Positions 2,970 to 13,903 of a stretch of DNA of 32,421 bases are shown here, piece after piece (position 1 is the stretch's first letter; each line of letters opens with the position of its first letter). Source of the DNA: an uncultured Planctomycetales bacterium (lineage in GTDB: Bacteria > Planctomycetota > SZUA-567 > JAFGNG01); contig CAZKKD010000002.1 in assembly GCA_964553265.1 (NCBI GenBank), positions 1 to 32,421 of the forward strand, written 5' to 3'. The notes beneath the pieces were generated by a model that had not been told where the DNA came from, made no database searches, and worked only from the letters and a program-made list of their open reading frames with translations. The position numbers and the translations under genes were made by a program.

Positions 2970-4015
2970 GATGCGCTCCGTGCTTCGGCGTGGACCCGGT
3001 CCCACTCGTCGAAGATGGCGAGGGCGACGTCGGGATTGGAACCGGGCGAGAGTTCGAACTGCGCGATGATGCCGCCGGCGGGGTCGTACAGGTGCTGCGC
3101 CACCTTGCGCACCGCGTCACGGCCCACCTGCGGGTCGGCCGCCGGCAACACGTGCTGGCGGTCGATCTCGCCCCAGAAGGTGAGTTTTCCCTTGGCCTTG
3201 CGGGCGAGCTCGTCCATGTCCATGCAGAAGAGCTGGCTGTTGAGCGCGTCGACGCCGACCTCCACCAGGTCCTCGTAGACCTCGCTGATGTGCCCGTCGG
3301 AATGCATGAAGATCGCCTTCCCGTGGGCGTGGGCCAGCTCGCAGTAGTCCCGGTAGAGCGGCTTGAAGAGCTCGCGCCAGGACGTCGGCGGAATCAGCAG
3401 CTGCGTCTGCGAACCCCAGTCGTCCATGAAGCAGACCGAATCGACATCCGTCGTCACCCAGAACTCCAGCTCCCGCAGGTAGAACGCATGGATCGCCGCC
3501 AGGACGTCGGCCATCCCCTCCTCCGGCATCATGACGTCCACCATCGCTTCTTCGGTGCCGCGGAGGAACTGGTAGCGCTCCCACGGCCGGGGACAGCATC
3601 CGCCGCGCATGTAGAGGTCGCTCTCGGCGCACGCGCGGTTGACCGCGTCCCGCGCCGCGTCCGGGTCCGCCGGCAGCGTCTCGACCGGCGGGCGGACCAC
3701 GTCCTGCCAGGCGTCGAGGTCCTTCAGGATCGGGTCGCGCACCTCGCCGATGACGCCGCGCTGCAGATTGGTAAAGACGCACCCCCACTCGTCGACATAC
3801 GTGCCCACCGCATGCTGTTCACCACTCTGACGTGAACTGGGCGCATACACCAGCGGCGGAAAGCCCACGTCGGCGGGATAGCGCTCCCGGAGTTCGCGCA
3901 GCGCTTCGCCCAGGTGCTCCTCCGCCCAGGGCAGCGCCCACAGTTCGCGCGGCAACCGCTCCGGATGCTCGAATGCAAGACACTGACGCACTATCTCCCG
4001 CGGGGTTGCCGCCAT
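2966..4015 (-). CDS. URO-D/MtaA-like family protein (349 aa)
   Basis: Frame of ORF 2966..4405 (-). The realistic start is MAATPREIVRQCLAFEHPERLP (ATG 4015-4013), with AGGAGA 6 nt upstream; the upstream 130 codons are Arg/Gly junk. The sequence (PRPWERYQFLRGTEEAMVDVMMPEEGMADVL..., FMDDWGSQTQLLIPP..., AIFMHSDGHISEVYEDLVEVGVDALNSQ) resembles the (beta/alpha)8 URO-D / methylcobamide methyltransferase fold family. Confidence 0.75.
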   Translation of the reverse strand: MAATPREIVRQCLAFEHPERLPRELWALPWAEEHLGEALRELRERYPADVGFPPLVYAPSSRQSGEQHAVGTYVDEWGCVFTNLQRGVIGEVRDPILKDLDAWQDVVRPPVETLPADPDAARDAVNRACAESDLYMRGGCCPRPWERYQFLRGTEEAMVDVMMPEEGMADVLAAIHAFYLRELEFWVTTDVDSVCFMDDWGSQTQLLIPPTSWRELFKPLYRDYCELAHAHGKAIFMHSDGHISEVYEDLVEVGVDALNSQLFCMDMDELARKAKGKLTFWGEIDRQHVLPAADPQVGRDAVRKVAQHLYDPAGGIIAQFELSPGSNPDVALAIFDEWDRVHAEARSAS

Positions 4016-4280
4016 GCCGTTCTCCTTCTGCTTTCGGCCCGTTGTCGTTGTGCGGATCCGCCGCCGCCCGGCGCGCGCACACCGCGGGGCCGCACCCCGG
4101 CGAACCGTGCGCCCGTTATCCGCCTCCGTACAGCCGCTGTCAAGAATGCTATCAGAATTTCCTGGCGCGCCGGTGGTCTCGCGTGCACCCGCGCGTACCC
4201 GCCATGCGTCCCACCCCTGTTTCCCCCCGTCCCGGGCCCGTCCGACCCCGGTCCAGCAGCGGTCCGACCCGCCTGCACGC

Positions 4281-4419: not shown

Positions 4420-6597
4420 ATGACGACGGACGCAGCCCCGCGCTTTCGCGACGCCTCCCTCCCCGCCGGGGAGCGGGCGAAGGACCTGGTCGACCGGCTG
4501 ACCCTGAACGAGAAGATCAGCCAGACCCTCTACACCGCGCCGGCCATCCCCCGGCTCGACATCCCCGAGTACAACTGGTGGAACGAGTGCCTCCACGGGG
4601 TGGCGCGCGCCGGCGTGGCGACCGTCTTTCCCCAGGCCATCGGCATGGCCGCGACCTGGAACGACGATCTCCTCCGCCAGGCGGCCGACTGCATCGCCAC
4701 CGAGGGCCGCGCCCGCCACCACGAGGCCGCCCGCCGCGGCGACCGCAACATCTACAAGGGCCTCACCTACTGGACCCCGAACATCAACATCTTCCGCGAT
4801 CCCCGCTGGGGCCGCGGGCACGAGACCTACGGCGAATGCCCCTTCCTCACCGCGCGGATGGGCGTCGCGTTCGTCAAGGGCCTCCAGGGCGACGACCCGA
4901 AATACATGAAGGCCGCCGCCTGCGCCAAGCACTACGCCGTCCACAGCGGCCCCGAGGTGGGGCGCCACAGCTTCGACAGCCAGTGCTCGGAAAAGGACCT
5001 GTGGGAAACCTACCTCCCCGCCTTCCACGCGCTCGTGCGCGAGGCCGGCGTCGCCGGCGTGATGGGCGCGTACAACCGCACCAACGGCGAACCGTGCTGC
5101 GCCAGCAAGACGCTGGGCCAGGAGATCCTCCGCAAGCAGTGGGGCTTCACCGGTTACTTCGTCTCCGACTGCGGCGCCATCCAGGACATCCACGCCCACC
5201 ACGGCTACACCGCCAACGGCGCCGAATCCGCCGCGCTCGCCATCCGGCTGGGCTGCGACCTCAACTGCGGGAGCGTCTACAAGGACCTTGTCATCGCCAC
5301 CACGCTCGGGCTCGTTTCCGAGGCGGAGATCGACGTCGCGGTCGAGCGCCTCTTCACCATCCGCTTCCGCCTGGGCCTGCTGGACGATCCGGAAAGCTAT
5401 ACCTACGGCCGGACCCCGTACGAGGTGAACGACTGCGAGGCCCATCACACGCTCAGCCTGGAGATGAGCCGGCAGTCGCTGGTGCTGCTGAAGAACGTCG
5501 ACGGACGCCTGCCGCTGCCGAAGAACCCGGGCTCCATCGCCGTGGTCGGCCCGACGGCGGCCGACGAGGACGTGCTGGTGGGCAACTACTTCGGCACCCC
5601 GTCGCAACGGGTCACCATCCTCGACGGCATCCGCCGGGCGGTGAGCCCGGAGACGACGGTCCGGTACGCCCAGGGGAGCGACCTTTTCGACGGGCAGACC
5701 CCGAACTGGGCCAACGACCCCGATCCGTGCCTGGCCGAGGGGCTGGCGGCGGTGGAGCGCGCGGACCTGACCGTGCTCTGCCTGGGGCTCTCCCCGCGCC
5801 TGGAAGGCGAGGAAGGGGACGTGGCCAACTCCGACGGCGGCGGCGACCGCCGCAGCATCCGCCTGCCGCGCTGCCAGGATCGGCTGCTCCGCGCCGTGGT
5901 GGCCACGGGCAAGCCGGTGGTGCTGGTCCTCACCGGCGGCAGCGCCCTGGCGCTCGGCGCGGTCGAGGCCGACCTGCCCGCCATCCTCATGGCCTGGTAC
6001 CCCGGCCAGTTCGGCGGCCGGGCGGTGGCCGAGGCGCTCTTCGGCGAGGTCAACCCGGCGGGGCGGCTGCCGGTGACGTTCTACCGCGACGACGATCAGC
6101 TCCCGCACTTCCACGACTACGCGATGACGAACCGCACCTACCGCTACTTCCGGGGCGAGCCGCTGTATCCGTTCGGCTACGGGCTCTCCTACACGCGCTT
6201 TGCCTACGAAGATCTCCAGCTCGGCGCGGAGACCCTGGCGGCGGGCGAGCCGCTCACCGTCCGGGCCCGGGTCACCAACACCGGCGACCGCGCCGGCGAC
6301 GAGGTGGCGCAGCTCTACCTCCGCGACCTCGAATCCTCCACCGAGCGCCCCGTCCACGACCTCCGCGGGTTCCGGCGCGTGCGGCTGAAGCCGGGCGAGA
6401 GCGCCGACCTGGAATTCGTCCTCAAGCCGCGCGACCTGGCGCTCGTCGACGACCAGGGACACTGCCGCATCGAAGCCGGGACGTTCCGCGTCTTCGTCGG
6501 CGGCCGCCAGCCGGACGCCCGCAGCGCCGCCCTGGCCGGCGCCGACGTCCTGGAGGCCGACTTCACCGTCACCGGCGAGGCCGCCCTGGAGCCGTAG
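4420..6597 (+). CDS. Glycoside hydrolase family 3 (beta-glucosidase/beta-xylosidase-like, 725 aa) with a C-terminal Fn3-like domain
   Basis: Frame of ORF 3832..6597 (+). The start is placed at MTTDAAPRFRD (ATG 4420), with AGGGAGA about 8 nt upstream. Landmarks: LTLNEKISQ, YNWWNECLHGVARAG, KHYAVHSGPE, nucleophile-type GYFVSDCGAI, and an Fn3-like tail EVAQLYLRDLESSTERPVHDLRGFRRVRLKPGES. The stop is TAG. Confidence 0.88.
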   Translation: MTTDAAPRFRDASLPAGERAKDLVDRLTLNEKISQTLYTAPAIPRLDIPEYNWWNECLHGVARAGVATVFPQAIGMAATWNDDLLRQAADCIATEGRARHHEAARRGDRNIYKGLTYWTPNINIFRDPRWGRGHETYGECPFLTARMGVAFVKGLQGDDPKYMKAAACAKHYAVHSGPEVGRHSFDSQCSEKDLWETYLPAFHALVREAGVAGVMGAYNRTNGEPCCASKTLGQEILRKQWGFTGYFVSDCGAIQDIHAHHGYTANGAESAALAIRLGCDLNCGSVYKDLVIATTLGLVSEAEIDVAVERLFTIRFRLGLLDDPESYTYGRTPYEVNDCEAHHTLSLEMSRQSLVLLKNVDGRLPLPKNPGSIAVVGPTAADEDVLVGNYFGTPSQRVTILDGIRRAVSPETTVRYAQGSDLFDGQTPNWANDPDPCLAEGLAAVERADLTVLCLGLSPRLEGEEGDVANSDGGGDRRSIRLPRCQDRLLRAVVATGKPVVLVLTGGSALALGAVEADLPAILMAWYPGQFGGRAVAEALFGEVNPAGRLPVTFYRDDDQLPHFHDYAMTNRTYRYFRGEPLYPFGYGLSYTRFAYEDLQLGAETLAAGEPLTVRARVTNTGDRAGDEVAQLYLRDLESSTERPVHDLRGFRRVRLKPGESADLEFVLKPRDLALVDDQGHCRIEAGTFRVFVGGRQPDARSAALAGADVLEADFTVTGEAALEP

Positions 6598-6738
6598 GGT
6601 AGAGGGGCATCGCCAAAAAAGCAGAAAAGACACCAAATGTATCTTGACGGAAATCAGTGCCCAACACAAAATCAATGAGGCTGAACGACGTCGCGCACTG
6701 GGAATACGCGTCTTTCTGCCGAAATCCGGACTTTTTTC

Positions 6739-6766
6739 TTGCAATGATTATATCTTGAGGTAATTT
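6739..6766 (+). promoter_or_regulatory. Candidate promoter for the islet-1 toxin-antitoxin operon
   Basis: TTGCAA (6739-6744), a 16-nt spacer, then TAATTT (6761-6766), in an AT-rich stretch about 80 nt upstream of the toxin start. Confidence 0.25.
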
Positions 6767-6844
6767 CCCTGATGGCGAAACCAAGGGTCCGGCATTGCTG
6801 AATACGCTTCGCAAGGCGGAACCGACCTTTACGCTACCGATGAG

Positions 6845-7213
6845 GTGCTCTGCCTTCTATTCGAAGCGAAATGCAAAAAGGTGAAGGGCATTTCGGACAA
6901 GCGTCACCGCAAGCAGATTCGTCAGCGACTGCTCAAGAGATGCGAAGGGGGACTGCTCAATTACCTTGGCAGCGGGAAAGACCGGGCAGGGGCTTTTGTG
7001 GTCCGGGAGCACGGTCGCGGATACGCACTCCGGTTCCTGGATTACAAGGTGCGCATTGCCGGATTCTTCACCAGCGACAACACGACATTCGTCGCCATCG
7101 ACTGGTTCAAAAAGGAACAAGACCGCAACAGCGAGGCGCAAAACGCTCTATATCGGCGGGCTGACGATCTGGCGAAAAGCGGAGAGTATGAGGAGTTGAG
7201 TCATGGCCATTGA
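6845..7213 (+). CDS. RelE/ParE-superfamily toxin, HigB/phage Gp49-like (122 aa, GTG start)
   Basis: ORF 6845..7213. The C-terminal core YALRFLDYKVRIAGFFTSDNTTFVAIDWFKKEQDRNSEAQNALYRRADDL matches the Gp49/HigB pattern (R-I-x-Y/F-F...-hG/W-F-K-K-x-Q-K...A). It lies upstream of, and overlaps by 11 nt, an XRE-HTH gene. The start is uncertain (GTG 6845 or GTG 6881). Confidence 0.7.
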   Translation: MLCLLFEAKCKKVKGISDKRHRKQIRQRLLKRCEGGLLNYLGSGKDRAGAFVVREHGRGYALRFLDYKVRIAGFFTSDNTTFVAIDWFKKEQDRNSEAQNALYRRADDLAKSGEYEELSHGH

Positions 7214-7691
7214 CCCCGAACTGGCGGCAGAGCTCGAAGAGACGGAAGGCACAGACATCGACGTCCTGGTCACGCTGCAAGATGACCTTGCCCGATGCCT
7301 TCTCACATACCTCAAGGCGAAGGGAATGACCCAGAAGGAACTGGCAAAGGAATCCGGCCTGACGGAGAAGCAAGTCAGTTGGATGGTCAACTCTAGCGGC
7401 AACTTCGAAATGGAGACCATTGCAAAGGTATTGGCCGGACTTGACCTGATGCCCGTCTTCGACGCCGTTCCGCGCGCACAGTACAAAAGCAGGGGCGCCT
7501 TTGTGGCATCCGATTGCCATGCAGGCAGCCCTTTCGGTACGATCAATGGCTTCAAAACGGCAACGGAATCCGCATCCCTGACTCCTTCCGCTTCCTCGGC
7601 CAGCATGCCCCTTGGCTCCGTTGTCGTAGGGGACAGTCTTCTCTCACAGAAAGCCCGCCCAAACCGATCCTCCCAAGGGACTGCAGCATAA
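7203..7691 (+). CDS. XRE-family HTH antitoxin (HigA-like, 162 aa) with a C-terminal extension of about 75 aa
   Basis: Classic HTH GMTQKELAKESGLTEKQVSWMVNSSGNFEMETIAKVLAGLDL. AGGAG lies 7 nt upstream of the ATG. A long Ser-rich tail follows the HTH and contains the FVASD motif. Confidence 0.8.
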   Translation: MAIDPELAAELEETEGTDIDVLVTLQDDLARCLLTYLKAKGMTQKELAKESGLTEKQVSWMVNSSGNFEMETIAKVLAGLDLMPVFDAVPRAQYKSRGAFVASDCHAGSPFGTINGFKTATESASLTPSASSASMPLGSVVVGDSLLSQKARPNRSSQGTAA

Positions 7692-7703
7692 GGAGCATGG
7701 AGC

Positions 7704-8018
7704 ATGGCAAAGCGAACGAAAGCAGGCCGCACACCGAAGGGTGACGCTTCATCAACGGAGCAACCCGAGAACCAACAAGCGCTTTTTGTAGACCCGACCC
7801 TGAAAACCCTCTTCTGCGACAATGTGAATTTCGCACTCCATGGCGATGGCCTCGTTCTCCTTCATGTTTTCAGCAAGCTCCCGGTAGGGGCAATGGAGCA
7901 GGCTCGACTCATGGTAACCCGGGATCACGCAAAACGGATCGTCCTTGCATTGTGCAAGACACTGGACTACCACCCGGAGCGAGAAGAGATTGATGCCTAC
8001 TCGAAGACGTTCGAATGA
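7704..8018 (+). CDS. Small protein (104 aa), DUF3467-like by motif; third gene of the islet-1 module
   Basis: AAGGAG lies 8 nt upstream, and the start is 12 nt after the antitoxin stop. LFCDNVNFALHGDGLVLLHVFSKLP...ARLMVTRDHAKRIVLALCKTLDYH resembles the DUF3467 pattern as I recall it (YaN.v.v.hs..EfvLdF....p...a.v..Rivm.P.hAKrll.aL..nl..YE). The family call is from memory. Confidence 0.6.
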   Translation: MAKRTKAGRTPKGDASSTEQPENQQALFVDPTLKTLFCDNVNFALHGDGLVLLHVFSKLPVGAMEQARLMVTRDHAKRIVLALCKTLDYHPEREEIDAYSKTFE

Positions 8019-8024
8019 GCCCCC

Positions 8025-9140
8025 TCAGCCGATGCCGTGTTCGTGGCAGAGGTCTTCGTAGAGGTCTTCGAGGCGGGTGATCTGCCGGCCGGCGTCGAAG
8101 CGGCGCAGGTTCTCCGGCATCTGGCGGCGGAGGTGCGCCGCGGTGGCGGGGGTGAGCGCGGCCCGGATGGCGGACGCGATGGCCTCGGGGCGGCTCTCGT
8201 TCACCAGGCGCCCGCCCCCGCCGGCCAGCGCCTCGGGCGTGCCGCCCACCGCGCGCGCCACCACCGGCACGCCCGCGGCCTGCGCCTCGAGGATGACCAT
8301 GCCCAGCCCCTCGCTGTCGCTGGTCACCACCACGCAGTCGAGCGCCCGGTAGACGCGCGCCACCTCCGCGTGCCGGCCGACAAACGCCACCTTGTGCGCC
8401 ATGCCGAGCTGGCGGGCCTTCTCCTTCAGCGTGTCGCGGAGCTTCCCCTCGCCCACCACGACGAAGTTGACGTCCGGCCGGTCCTGGTTGAGCCGGAACG
8501 CGGCGTCGAGGAAGAGGTCGTGGCGCTTCACCGGGTGCAACCGGCCGACAATGCCCACGCACGGTCCGTCCGCGGCGAGGCCGAGGTCGGCCTTGGCGAG
8601 CTGGGGCGAGATGTCGCTCCGGAAGGCGTTGGGGTCGATGAAGTTGTGCAGCGTCTCCACCCGGTCGCGCGGCATGTCCGCCACCTCCATCTGCACGGTC
8701 GCCACCGCGTCGGAGATGCAGAGAACGCGGTCCGTGCGCTTCGCCAGCCAGCGGGCAATCCAGCCGTGGTGCGACCGCGTGTCGCGCAGCACGTCGTGCG
8801 CGTGGGCGATGCGCACCGGCGTCCCGGCCAGGACCGCGGCCAGCCGCCCGCTCAGGTTGGCGCGCCGCAGGTGCGTGTGCACCACGTCGATATCGAGCTC
8901 ACGCAGCAGCCCCTGCAGGCGCACAAGGCCGATCAGGCTGAGCCGGCTGGAAAAGTACACCAGGTGATGCGGAACGCGCTGGTCCTCCAGCCGTGCGATG
9001 AGCGACCCGCCGCTGCGGAGGCAGCAGACGTGCGGGCGAAAGCGGCTGCGGTCCAGGTTCGCGACAATGTCGCAGACGACGCGCTGCGCGCCGCCCATCT
9101 CCATGTCGCTCAGGATATGCATCACGCGAATCGGGCGCAT
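8025..9140 (-). CDS. Glycosyltransferase family 4 (GT-B, group 1; 371 aa)
   Basis: Frame of ORF 8025..9215 (-). The start is at MRPIRVMHILSDMEMGGAQRVV (ATG 9140). The C-terminal half has the GT4 pattern FVGRH..VARVYRALDCVVVTSDSEGLGMVILEAQAAGVPVVA (the E-x7-E region). Confidence 0.85.
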   Translation of the reverse strand: MRPIRVMHILSDMEMGGAQRVVCDIVANLDRSRFRPHVCCLRSGGSLIARLEDQRVPHHLVYFSSRLSLIGLVRLQGLLRELDIDVVHTHLRRANLSGRLAAVLAGTPVRIAHAHDVLRDTRSHHGWIARWLAKRTDRVLCISDAVATVQMEVADMPRDRVETLHNFIDPNAFRSDISPQLAKADLGLAADGPCVGIVGRLHPVKRHDLFLDAAFRLNQDRPDVNFVVVGEGKLRDTLKEKARQLGMAHKVAFVGRHAEVARVYRALDCVVVTSDSEGLGMVILEAQAAGVPVVARAVGGTPEALAGGGGRLVNESRPEAIASAIRAALTPATAAHLRRQMPENLRRFDAGRQITRLEDLYEDLCHEHGIG

Positions 9141-13507: not shown

Positions 13508-13903
13508 TCAAATCTCCCTGACGCGGCCCTCGGCCTTTGCCGACCGGTACAGATCCCGGATGCGCCGGGCCCTGTCGATCTCGCCGGGTGGGGTCTTTTG
13601 ACGCTTTTTGACGAAGCCATGCGTACAGATGATCAGATTCTCCTCATCCCAAAACCATGCGATCCGCAGGCAACCACCCTTGAACTCAAAGATTCCGTCT
13701 TCAAGACTGCGACACTTCTCCTTGTTGCGAATGCGACCCCGCTCCGCCATTTCCCGCAGAACACGCATGAGGCGGGCGAAATCCGTCGCTCTGCCCCTCC
13801 CCTACTCATCCAGAAAGCCACGCAGGTCACAGCCGTGGCCATCGATGGCCGTGACTCGGCAAGACGCACCAGACCAAACGACTTGCAGGTTCACGTCACT
13901 CAT
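13508..13903 (-). pseudogene. HigB/Gp49-like toxin gene interrupted by an in-frame TAG at codon 34
   Basis: The ORF track lists only the distal 86 aa (13508..13768). Hand translation from ATG 13903 gives MSDVNLQVVWSGASCRVTAIDGHGCDLRGFLDE-TAG(13804-13802)-GRGRATDFARL-MRVLREMAERGRIRNKEKCRSLEDGIFEFKGGCLRIAWFWDEENLIICTHGFVKKRQKTPPGEIDRARRIR..., all in one frame. Together this is a full-length Gp49-type toxin of about 130 aa. There is no SD in front of the internal ATG at 13768. Confidence 0.65.

Follow-up and report, generated by a model that had tools for sequence, protein, structure and literature searches.

An undescribed small-protein family as a probable third component of toxin-antitoxin modules with a TAC-like layout

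The DNA analysed here is a stretch of 32,421 nt (referred to below as the window; positions 1 to 32,421 of contig CAZKKD010000002.1, assembly GCA_964553265.1) from an uncultured Planctomycetales bacterium. It contains, on the plus strand, three consecutive genes, which encode a presumed toxin (g1, 6845-7213; 122 aa from a GTG start), an XRE-type antitoxin-like protein (g2, 7203-7691; 162 aa) and a protein of 104 aa with an ATG start (g3, 7704-8018). All three were taken from the list of open reading frames (ORFs), g2 being identified in addition by the Pfam model HTH_3. The third protein belongs to a family that is undescribed and is absent from Pfam, NCBIfam, PHROGs and PADLOC. In 10 of the 11 lineages whose gene order was traced, a member of this family is encoded third, after a toxin and then a long-tailed antitoxin of 161-186 aa, and the family very probably forms an integral part of such modules, as their third component. 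This is the layout of the SecB-type toxin-antitoxin-chaperone (TAC) systems. By analogy with these, and with a probability of about 0.55, we propose that g3 binds and stabilises the antitoxin via its tail, and would thus be a SecB-independent TAC analogue.

Recurrence of the third gene beside long-tailed antitoxins

Gene context was sampled for 17 family members obtained by word-index search and for two hits from pattern scans, out of about 150 representative clusters. The two hits, one a genome locus and the other a metagenome locus, came from scans with subfamily alignments. A pattern scan with the window's own subfamily alignment returned no locus, and the broad family alignments were too divergent to give any usable ones.

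Eight of the 11 lineages (loci L004-7, L012, L013-15, L017, L018, L020, the P0155 contig and L019, the last on a Desulfatiglandales chromosome) carry an MqsR toxin, then an antitoxin with a Zn-ribbon and an HTH_17 domain, then the g3-family gene. MqsR was recognised by Pfam PF15723 in seven of these, and in L019 by a phmmer match to the MqsR of L017 (E 5e-35). The antitoxins are 175-186 aa long and are conserved as far as a GDGRF.L motif at about aa 131, beyond which they end in divergent tails of 45-55 aa. Two further lineages, that of the window and its orthologous loci (L001-L003) and that of a set of Rep3/IS21 plasmid-like contigs (L008-11), have toxins of 147-150 aa without a Pfam family, followed by tailed XRE HTH_3 antitoxins of 161-165 aa and the g3-family gene. 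The eleventh lineage departs from this order and is considered with the weighing of the proposal below.

It is apparent that the family accompanies two unrelated toxin/antitoxin pairs. What all of the modules have in common is the g3 gene itself and an antitoxin that continues for about 45-75 aa past its DNA-binding domain, and in every one of them the second and third genes are tightly coupled, by an overlap of 8-29 nt or a gap of 1-12 nt. A neighbourhood survey had been suggested in a preliminary description of this DNA, which took the third gene to be a genuine part of the module, and its outcome bears that expectation out. Several of the modules adjoin integrases, insertion sequence (IS) elements or Rep3 plasmid genes; next to one of them lies an ORF which, by eye, resembles the C-terminal fragment of a helicase. 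The Zn-ribbon antitoxin gave no phmmer match to MqsA in the PDB. No plasmid relatives of it were found with which the same antitoxin family could be compared beside SecB and beside g3.

Rates of substitution point in the same direction as the gene order. The ratio of non-synonymous to synonymous substitution rates (dN/dS) was obtained by Nei-Gojobori comparison of the window module with the orthologous locus L001. It was 0.16 for g1; 0.10, 0.33 and 0.84 for aa 1-100, 101-125 and 126-162 of g2, respectively; and 0.46 for aa 1-21 of g3, compared with 0.06 (dS 0.82) for aa 22-104. For g1, aa 1-100 of g2 and aa 22-104 of g3, dS lay at 0.26-0.82. The strongest constraint within the module thus falls on the g3 core, and the last part of the antitoxin tail evolves almost neutrally. 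Purifying selection acts on all three genes, which are real and not chance ORFs. In a second orthologue pair, L004 and L018, the corresponding values were 0.17 for the antitoxin core, 0.49 for its tail and 0.13 for the g3 core; the two tails are 29% identical, and H, ST, W-x-Q-A and PT-G stand out in them as isolated conserved positions. This pattern, in which g3 cores at 0.06 and 0.13 stand beside tails at 0.33-0.84 and 0.49, matches what a folded receptor and a disordered ligand would be predicted to give. The tail of the L004 antitoxin (3502-4029) also includes the segment APPTWHQAP, which resembles the core of the chaperone-addiction (ChAD) element of Mycobacterium tuberculosis HigA1, EVPTWHRLSSYRG, whose W108 is a key contact; the likeness may be coincidental.

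In view of these results it is barely credible that the TAC-like layout has arisen by coincidence, with g3 a spurious ORF or a neighbour unrelated to the pair. Such a view could appeal to the lack of any database annotation for g3, but it would have to accommodate about 150 homologous clusters, strong purifying selection, a confidently predicted fold and a position conserved in all but one of the lineages. The third gene is therefore a conserved and selected part of the module, in the place that SecB occupies in TAC systems.

The module in the window and its presumed toxin

In the window, g1 and g2 overlap by 11 nt, and g2 and g3, which share a reading frame, are separated by a 12-nt spacer; the ribosome-binding site of g3, AAGGAG (7690-7695, plus strand), lies 8 nt 5' of its ATG and is kept in L001. 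The overlap, the spacer and the AAGGAG, as well as the three ORFs and their coordinates, are as first noted. The non-coding sequence upstream of the module (6601-6771) is identical to that of L001 at 151 of 171 positions, and a consensus scan located within it a sigma-70-like promoter site (TTGACG, 17 nt, CAAAAT; 6644-6672, plus strand), which is a match to the consensus only. The module lies between genes for a GH3 glycosidase and a GT4 glycosyltransferase, an arrangement (GH3, g1, g2, g3, GT4) that is the same in the metagenomic orthologue from a microbial mat (L001-L003). Its G+C content, 0.50-0.58 over about 6.6-8.0 kb, compared with 0.70-0.75 in the flanks, confirms the low-G+C islet that had been described there. 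The TAC-like reading, which we rate as slightly better than an even bet, includes the horizontal acquisition of the locus as a three-gene toxin-antitoxin cassette. The dS values with respect to L001 range from 0.26 to 0.87 within the module and are 0.13 for the flanking GH3 gene (4861-6597) and 0.09 for GT4 (8025-8402). Because the module values are well above those of the flanks, they point either to allele exchange or to mutation or selection of a different kind within the islet.

The antitoxin-like protein g2 contains an HTH_3 helix-turn-helix (HTH) domain at aa 36-81 (7308-7445, plus strand; Pfam PF01381, 25.4 bits with a cut-off of 23, E 1.5e-5). Among PDB sequences, HipB, HigA and C-protein chains align with it over aa 28-88 only (E about 5e-3 to 5e-2 for HipB and HigA), and its best PADLOC profile is PDC-M64C (E 1.8e-8, aa 8-81), followed by PDC-M64B at about 1e-4. 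The C-terminal extension (aa 90-162; 7470-7688, plus strand), rich in S, T, A, G and P, lies beyond all of the HTH-family alignments; since these stop at about aa 88, some 72 aa of the protein constitute an extension. Judged by its sequence, g2 is thus an HTH protein of the XRE antitoxin type that ends in a fast-evolving extension of about 72 aa; the XRE type and the long tail had been noted beforehand. Within the extension, aa 101-125 hold the motif GF(K/Q)TATESA, conserved between the window and L001, and by analogy with the ChAD element we infer that the tail is the candidate g3-binding region. The candidate defence system PDC-M64 of PADLOC resembles the window module in the N-terminal and HTH region of g2, through the profiles PDC-M64C and PDC-M64B, but none of its components is matched by g1 or g3. 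The PDC-M64 relatives also lack the tail of g2, because the profile comprises only 93 positions.

The presumed toxin proved less tractable. It had been labelled a HigB/Gp49-like protein, and this label could not be upheld. Neither the 122-aa form in the window nor the intact orthologue of 147 aa has a match in Pfam, NCBIfam, PADLOC, PHROGs or the PDB sequences, and g1 shows no BLASTP similarity to the Gp49 toxin encoded elsewhere in the window; assignment to Gp49/HigB (PF05973) was accordingly dropped, for want of sequence support in any library. A single-sequence AlphaFold (AF2) model of g1, of low confidence (pLDDT 47.5), has the topology alpha-alpha-beta4-alpha. When this model was compared by Foldseek, RelE/HigB chains, the M. 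tuberculosis TAC toxin HigB1 among them, appeared at ranks 1, 5, 6, 12, 18, 20, 21, 35 and 47, the best with an E value of 0.2 and none of them significant. A RelE-like fold is plausible on the strength of this model, and it is presumed that g1 is the toxin. The toxins that pair with XRE antitoxins in L008 (2054-2506) and L001 (2070-2513) both lack a Pfam family and have no BLASTP similarity to each other; on sequence, they may represent two further unclassified toxin families.

The start of g1 is damaged in the window. DNA alignment to L001 identified a relic of the native start, an ATG at 6772 preceded by a GAGGT Shine-Dalgarno sequence, which now opens a 9-codon ORF ending in TGA (6772-6801, plus strand). 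The same ATG opens the 147-aa ORF in L001, and in the window a deletion of 2 bp, between 6790 and 6791, has shifted it out of the g1 frame. Translation of the g1 frame meets stops upstream and no start codon before the GTG at 6845, which is the only start remaining to the gene; it is without a proper Shine-Dalgarno sequence, and a protein started there lacks about 25 conserved residues at the N-terminus. From about 6785 onwards the sequence in the g1 frame has remained conserved, 17 of 18 of the stranded upstream residues being identical to those of the L001 orthologue, and the lesion is therefore either recent or an assembly error. The Logan contig L022 ends short of the deletion site. With the native start of its toxin gene gone, the module in this genome may be attenuated or decaying.

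A second module in the window bears on the same matter. The set at 12.6-13.9 kb, which had been described as a SecB-type TAC module of matching layout, is indeed a real Gp49/HTH_3/SecB set, on the minus strand and 5 kb from g1-g3. Its antitoxin HTH is related to that of g2 (29% identity over 49 aa, pairwise E 5e-7), again as had been claimed. The Gp49 toxin of this module (13508-13902, minus strand) is interrupted by a TAG in its reading frame: translated from the ATG at 13902, which looks native, it reads ...GFLDE*GRGRATDFARL-MRVLREM..., and the intact Gp49 ORF comprises only the C-terminal 86 aa (13508-13768; positions 16-88 of the Pfam Gp49 model). With the deletion in g1 and the TAG in Gp49, both TAC-like modules of the window have a damaged toxin N-terminus.

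There is, then, a sizeable possibility, somewhat short of even, that the copy in the window is a decaying and non-toxic remnant, with g1 inactive and g2-g3 an orphan antitoxin pair. This concerns the copy and not the family. It would agree with the displaced ATG, the poorly equipped GTG and the similarly broken toxin of the second module; it agrees less well with the purifying selection still acting on g1 downstream of the lesion (dN/dS 0.16), and the near-identity of the stranded residues leaves room for a recent event or an error of assembly.

Family, fold and relatives of the third protein

No match to g3 was found in Pfam (at E<=1), NCBIfam or PHROGs; matches among PDB sequences were at chance level, as was the one to pAgo in PADLOC (E 0.056, 9.8 bits). 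A word-index protein search with g3 recovered only g3 itself and an orthologue 80% identical to it. An exhaustive HMMER search yielded 152 representative clusters (E<=1e-3), almost all of them proteins of 75-125 aa. Three matches, P0004 (4132 aa and, at E 3e-77, the top match), P0066 and P0149, were set aside as artefacts, their scores being sums over numerous weak matches to repeats, each of about 6 bits. The family has the signature L.T(L/I)(F/W).D......R.DG..L(L/I)R....LPEG..EQAR(I/L)M......K..ID.LC..(L)DYYP.K, with D39, R46, D48, E65, R68, C84, Y89 and P91 near-invariant. The g3 of the window belongs to a divergent branch, having H46, H54, V61, L81 and H90. Its N-terminus (aa 1-21) is variable and its conserved core extends over aa 27-91 (nt 7782-7976). 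No members were found in the plasmid, phage and viral-contig collections, and as far as sequence searches can tell the family appears to be confined to environmental genomes.

An AF2 model of g3 built from the family alignment (pLDDT 87.5) has strands at 40-45, 50-59 and 62-72 and helices at 73-87 and 93-102, and thus a predicted core fold of the order beta-beta-beta-alpha-alpha. Foldseek comparison of the model with the PDB and BFVD gave no significant structural neighbour; the weak ones include Pur-alpha and Sub1/PC4 (E about 0.3-0.7), which are nucleic-acid binders built of a beta-sheet plus helix. The mean charge in the family is +1.1 for the N-terminal tail, +2.1 for the C-terminal tail and -1.0 for the core, the tails often being rich in Lys and Arg.

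These features bear on the question of whether the protein might be an obligate third component of the modules but not a chaperone of the tail, acting either as a toxin-binding co-antitoxin or modulator, or as a DNA- or RNA-binding co-regulator, and so resembling the third genes of paaR-paaA-parE or omega-epsilon-zeta. We consider this possible but rather unlikely. The basic tails and the Pur-alpha and Sub1/PC4 neighbours would suit a binder of nucleic acids, MqsR and the weak RelE/HigB-like matches of g1 may share a single fold which g3 recognises, and the data on gene order fit such roles equally well. However, the structural matches are not significant, the window's own g3 has a net charge of zero, the antitoxins already carry an HTH, and the long extra tail on every associated antitoxin would be left unexplained.

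The third gene had been described as not SecB-like by eye, and this was borne out by every comparison made. Assignment of g3 to SecB (PF02556) was rejected, as there was no Pfam match and the hhalign probability with the window's SecB was 0.2%. SecB was likewise absent among the best 50 PDB Foldseek matches listed for the g3 model, and the window's SecB scored -0.9 bits with the family profile.

The second half of that description, namely that the protein is DUF3467-like, held only in part. Membership of Pfam DUF3467 (PF11950) was rejected at the level of the family: none of about 148 representatives passes the threshold of 25 bits, nine of them giving sub-threshold matches (best E 4e-4), and g3 itself has no match at E<=1. 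Profile-profile comparison by hhalign, with probabilities of 64-92%, nevertheless supports a remote homology. Against a consensus-like DUF3467 proxy (Pfam-validated at E 1e-37, and about 64% identical to Bacteroides proteins) the g3 family gave a probability of 91.6%, with E 8e-7 over 77 columns; against three real DUF3467 members the probability was 64%, with E 6e-5 over 52 columns. The two families are similar in size and in the order of their secondary-structure elements, and share a strand-to-helix segment, ...R(I/V)(I/V/M)..(P/T)..HAKR(L/I)..., but the g3 family has invariant residues of its own and scores below the Pfam threshold. From these sequence comparisons it is probably a remote homologue of DUF3467 and not a member.

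The two families differ also in their surroundings. All three of the genuine DUF3467 genes inspected stand alone, and none of them is in a toxin-antitoxin triplet. That of Bacteroides finegoldii (L023, 3001-3309) lies directly upstream of rpsL-rpsG-fusA, that of Parabacteroides distasonis (L025, 2998-3312) lies near rpoC, and that of Octadecabacter is isolated on a plasmid; the 'plasmid' records L023 and L025 look like chromosome fragments. The genuine DUF3467 genes inspected are thus stand-alone and mostly adjoin housekeeping genes, whereas the g3 family sits almost always in toxin-antitoxin triplets, and the claim that the module would give DUF3467 a function was not sustained. The translation-adjacent housekeeping context may hint at a function of DUF3467's own, and essentially no literature on this family was found. 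To our knowledge, the Bacteroides phylum is generally without SecB. It could be imagined that the g3 family provides a second route to 'chaperone addiction', unrelated to SecB, in which a small holdase that needs no ATP would clamp the disordered tail, and that DUF3467 is a general small chaperone. This combined proposal is unlikely; if true, it would provide a function for the whole superfamily.

A TAC-like reading and its significance

The SecB-type TAC systems used for comparison were HigB1-HigA1-SecB^TA of M. tuberculosis (Rv1955-57), MqsRAC of Escherichia coli, HigBAC and CmdTAC. The modules described here resemble them in several respects. In both, a toxin gene, an antitoxin gene and a third gene are co-directional and tightly coupled; the antitoxin has a C-terminal extension past its folded domains (a ChAD function for the tail of g2 being an analogy); one family of third genes serves different toxin and antitoxin families, MqsR included; and the loci occupy mobile, low-G+C islets. 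In TAC systems the ChAD extension makes the antitoxin dependent on the chaperone (PMC5105189, PMC6377645), and pairs such as HigBA and MqsRA are served by one and the same SecB-type chaperone family (PMC5105189, PMC6377645, PMC3581621). The difference lies in the third protein: g3 comprises about 100 aa, has a beta3-alpha2 fold in its model and shows no relation to SecB in sequence or in structure, whereas the SecB-like chaperones are tetramers of about 150-180 aa.

Other three-gene toxin-antitoxin operons with an accessory protein are paaR-paaA-parE, omega-epsilon-zeta and HipBST. Their third gene encodes a transcriptional regulator or a split toxin or antitoxin domain, and is not tied to an extended tail; g3, for its part, has no HTH or other recognised DNA-binding domain. 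The TACs in the searchable literature are all SecB-like, no non-SecB third component of a TAC-like system being found there, and there is no earlier description in that literature of a TAC-like architecture with an unrelated third protein. The suggestion that this is a new flavour of tripartite toxin-antitoxin system therefore survives in respect of the third gene, which is recurrent, distinct from SecB and without precedent in the searchable literature, and is not supported in respect of the Gp49/HigB toxin.

The TAC-like reading of g3 follows from the fact that two unrelated classes of antitoxin share a long, poorly conserved tail and a tightly coupled g3 gene. Under it, g3 would be co-translated with the antitoxin and would bind its disordered C-terminal extension, keeping it soluble and shielded from proteolysis. 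The antitoxin so protected would neutralise the toxin and repress the operon, and loss, titration or displacement of g3 would set the toxin free.

A protein that binds the tail might also act in the opposite sense, promoting degradation of the antitoxin or serving as a sensor (a protease adaptor or a trigger receptor that responds to phage infection or stress, with abortive infection as the outcome). SecB-type TACs have recently been shown to be defence systems that sense phage through their chaperone (bioRxiv 10.1101/2024.02.24.581848; PMC11980606), and the integrases, IS elements, Rep3 genes and helicase-like ORF beside several of the modules are in keeping with such a role. On the other hand, neither g1 nor g3 has a defence-family match in PADLOC, no family members were found in the phage, viral-contig or plasmid collections, and sequence alone does not reveal in which direction g3 would act. 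This alternative is regarded as quite unlikely.

Several points weigh against the proposal that g3 stabilises the antitoxin through its tail. The context sampling covers a small part of the g3 family. No motif common to all of the antitoxin tails was found, only lineage-specific patches. In the exceptional lineage, L021 (1117-1745), a member of 74 aa overlaps a Zn-ribbon protein of roughly 81 aa by 4 nt within a run of small ORFs, and no toxin or long antitoxin is visible nearby; this member may be an orphan or a mobile-element copy, and the idea that it is an anti-TAC decoy is pure speculation. The modelled fold of g3 is without a significant neighbour, so that nothing independent says 'chaperone'. 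As for g1, it is without a family assignment by any of the libraries searched, and its start is frameshifted in the window. All of the toxins involved may share a RelE-like fold, in which case g3 could recognise the toxin and not the tail. Finally, we infer the binding of g3 to the tail, as well as its target and its direction.

The g3 family is a new family outside Pfam and provides a lead on the function of DUF3467-like proteins. It is small and easily expressed, and because intact modules are available in sequence (L001, L004 and L019) the TAC-like hypothesis is directly testable. Surveys of the NetFlax type have either excluded conserved three-gene neighbourhoods or reported sporadic accessory genes only, and the modules described here, which span MqsR-type and XRE-type systems, would constitute an additional class of toxin-antitoxin loci, with three genes, which pipelines designed to find two-gene systems discard. 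An unrelated family of roughly 100 aa in the slot of SecB would show that the 'addiction' of an antitoxin to a dedicated partner has evolved more than once.

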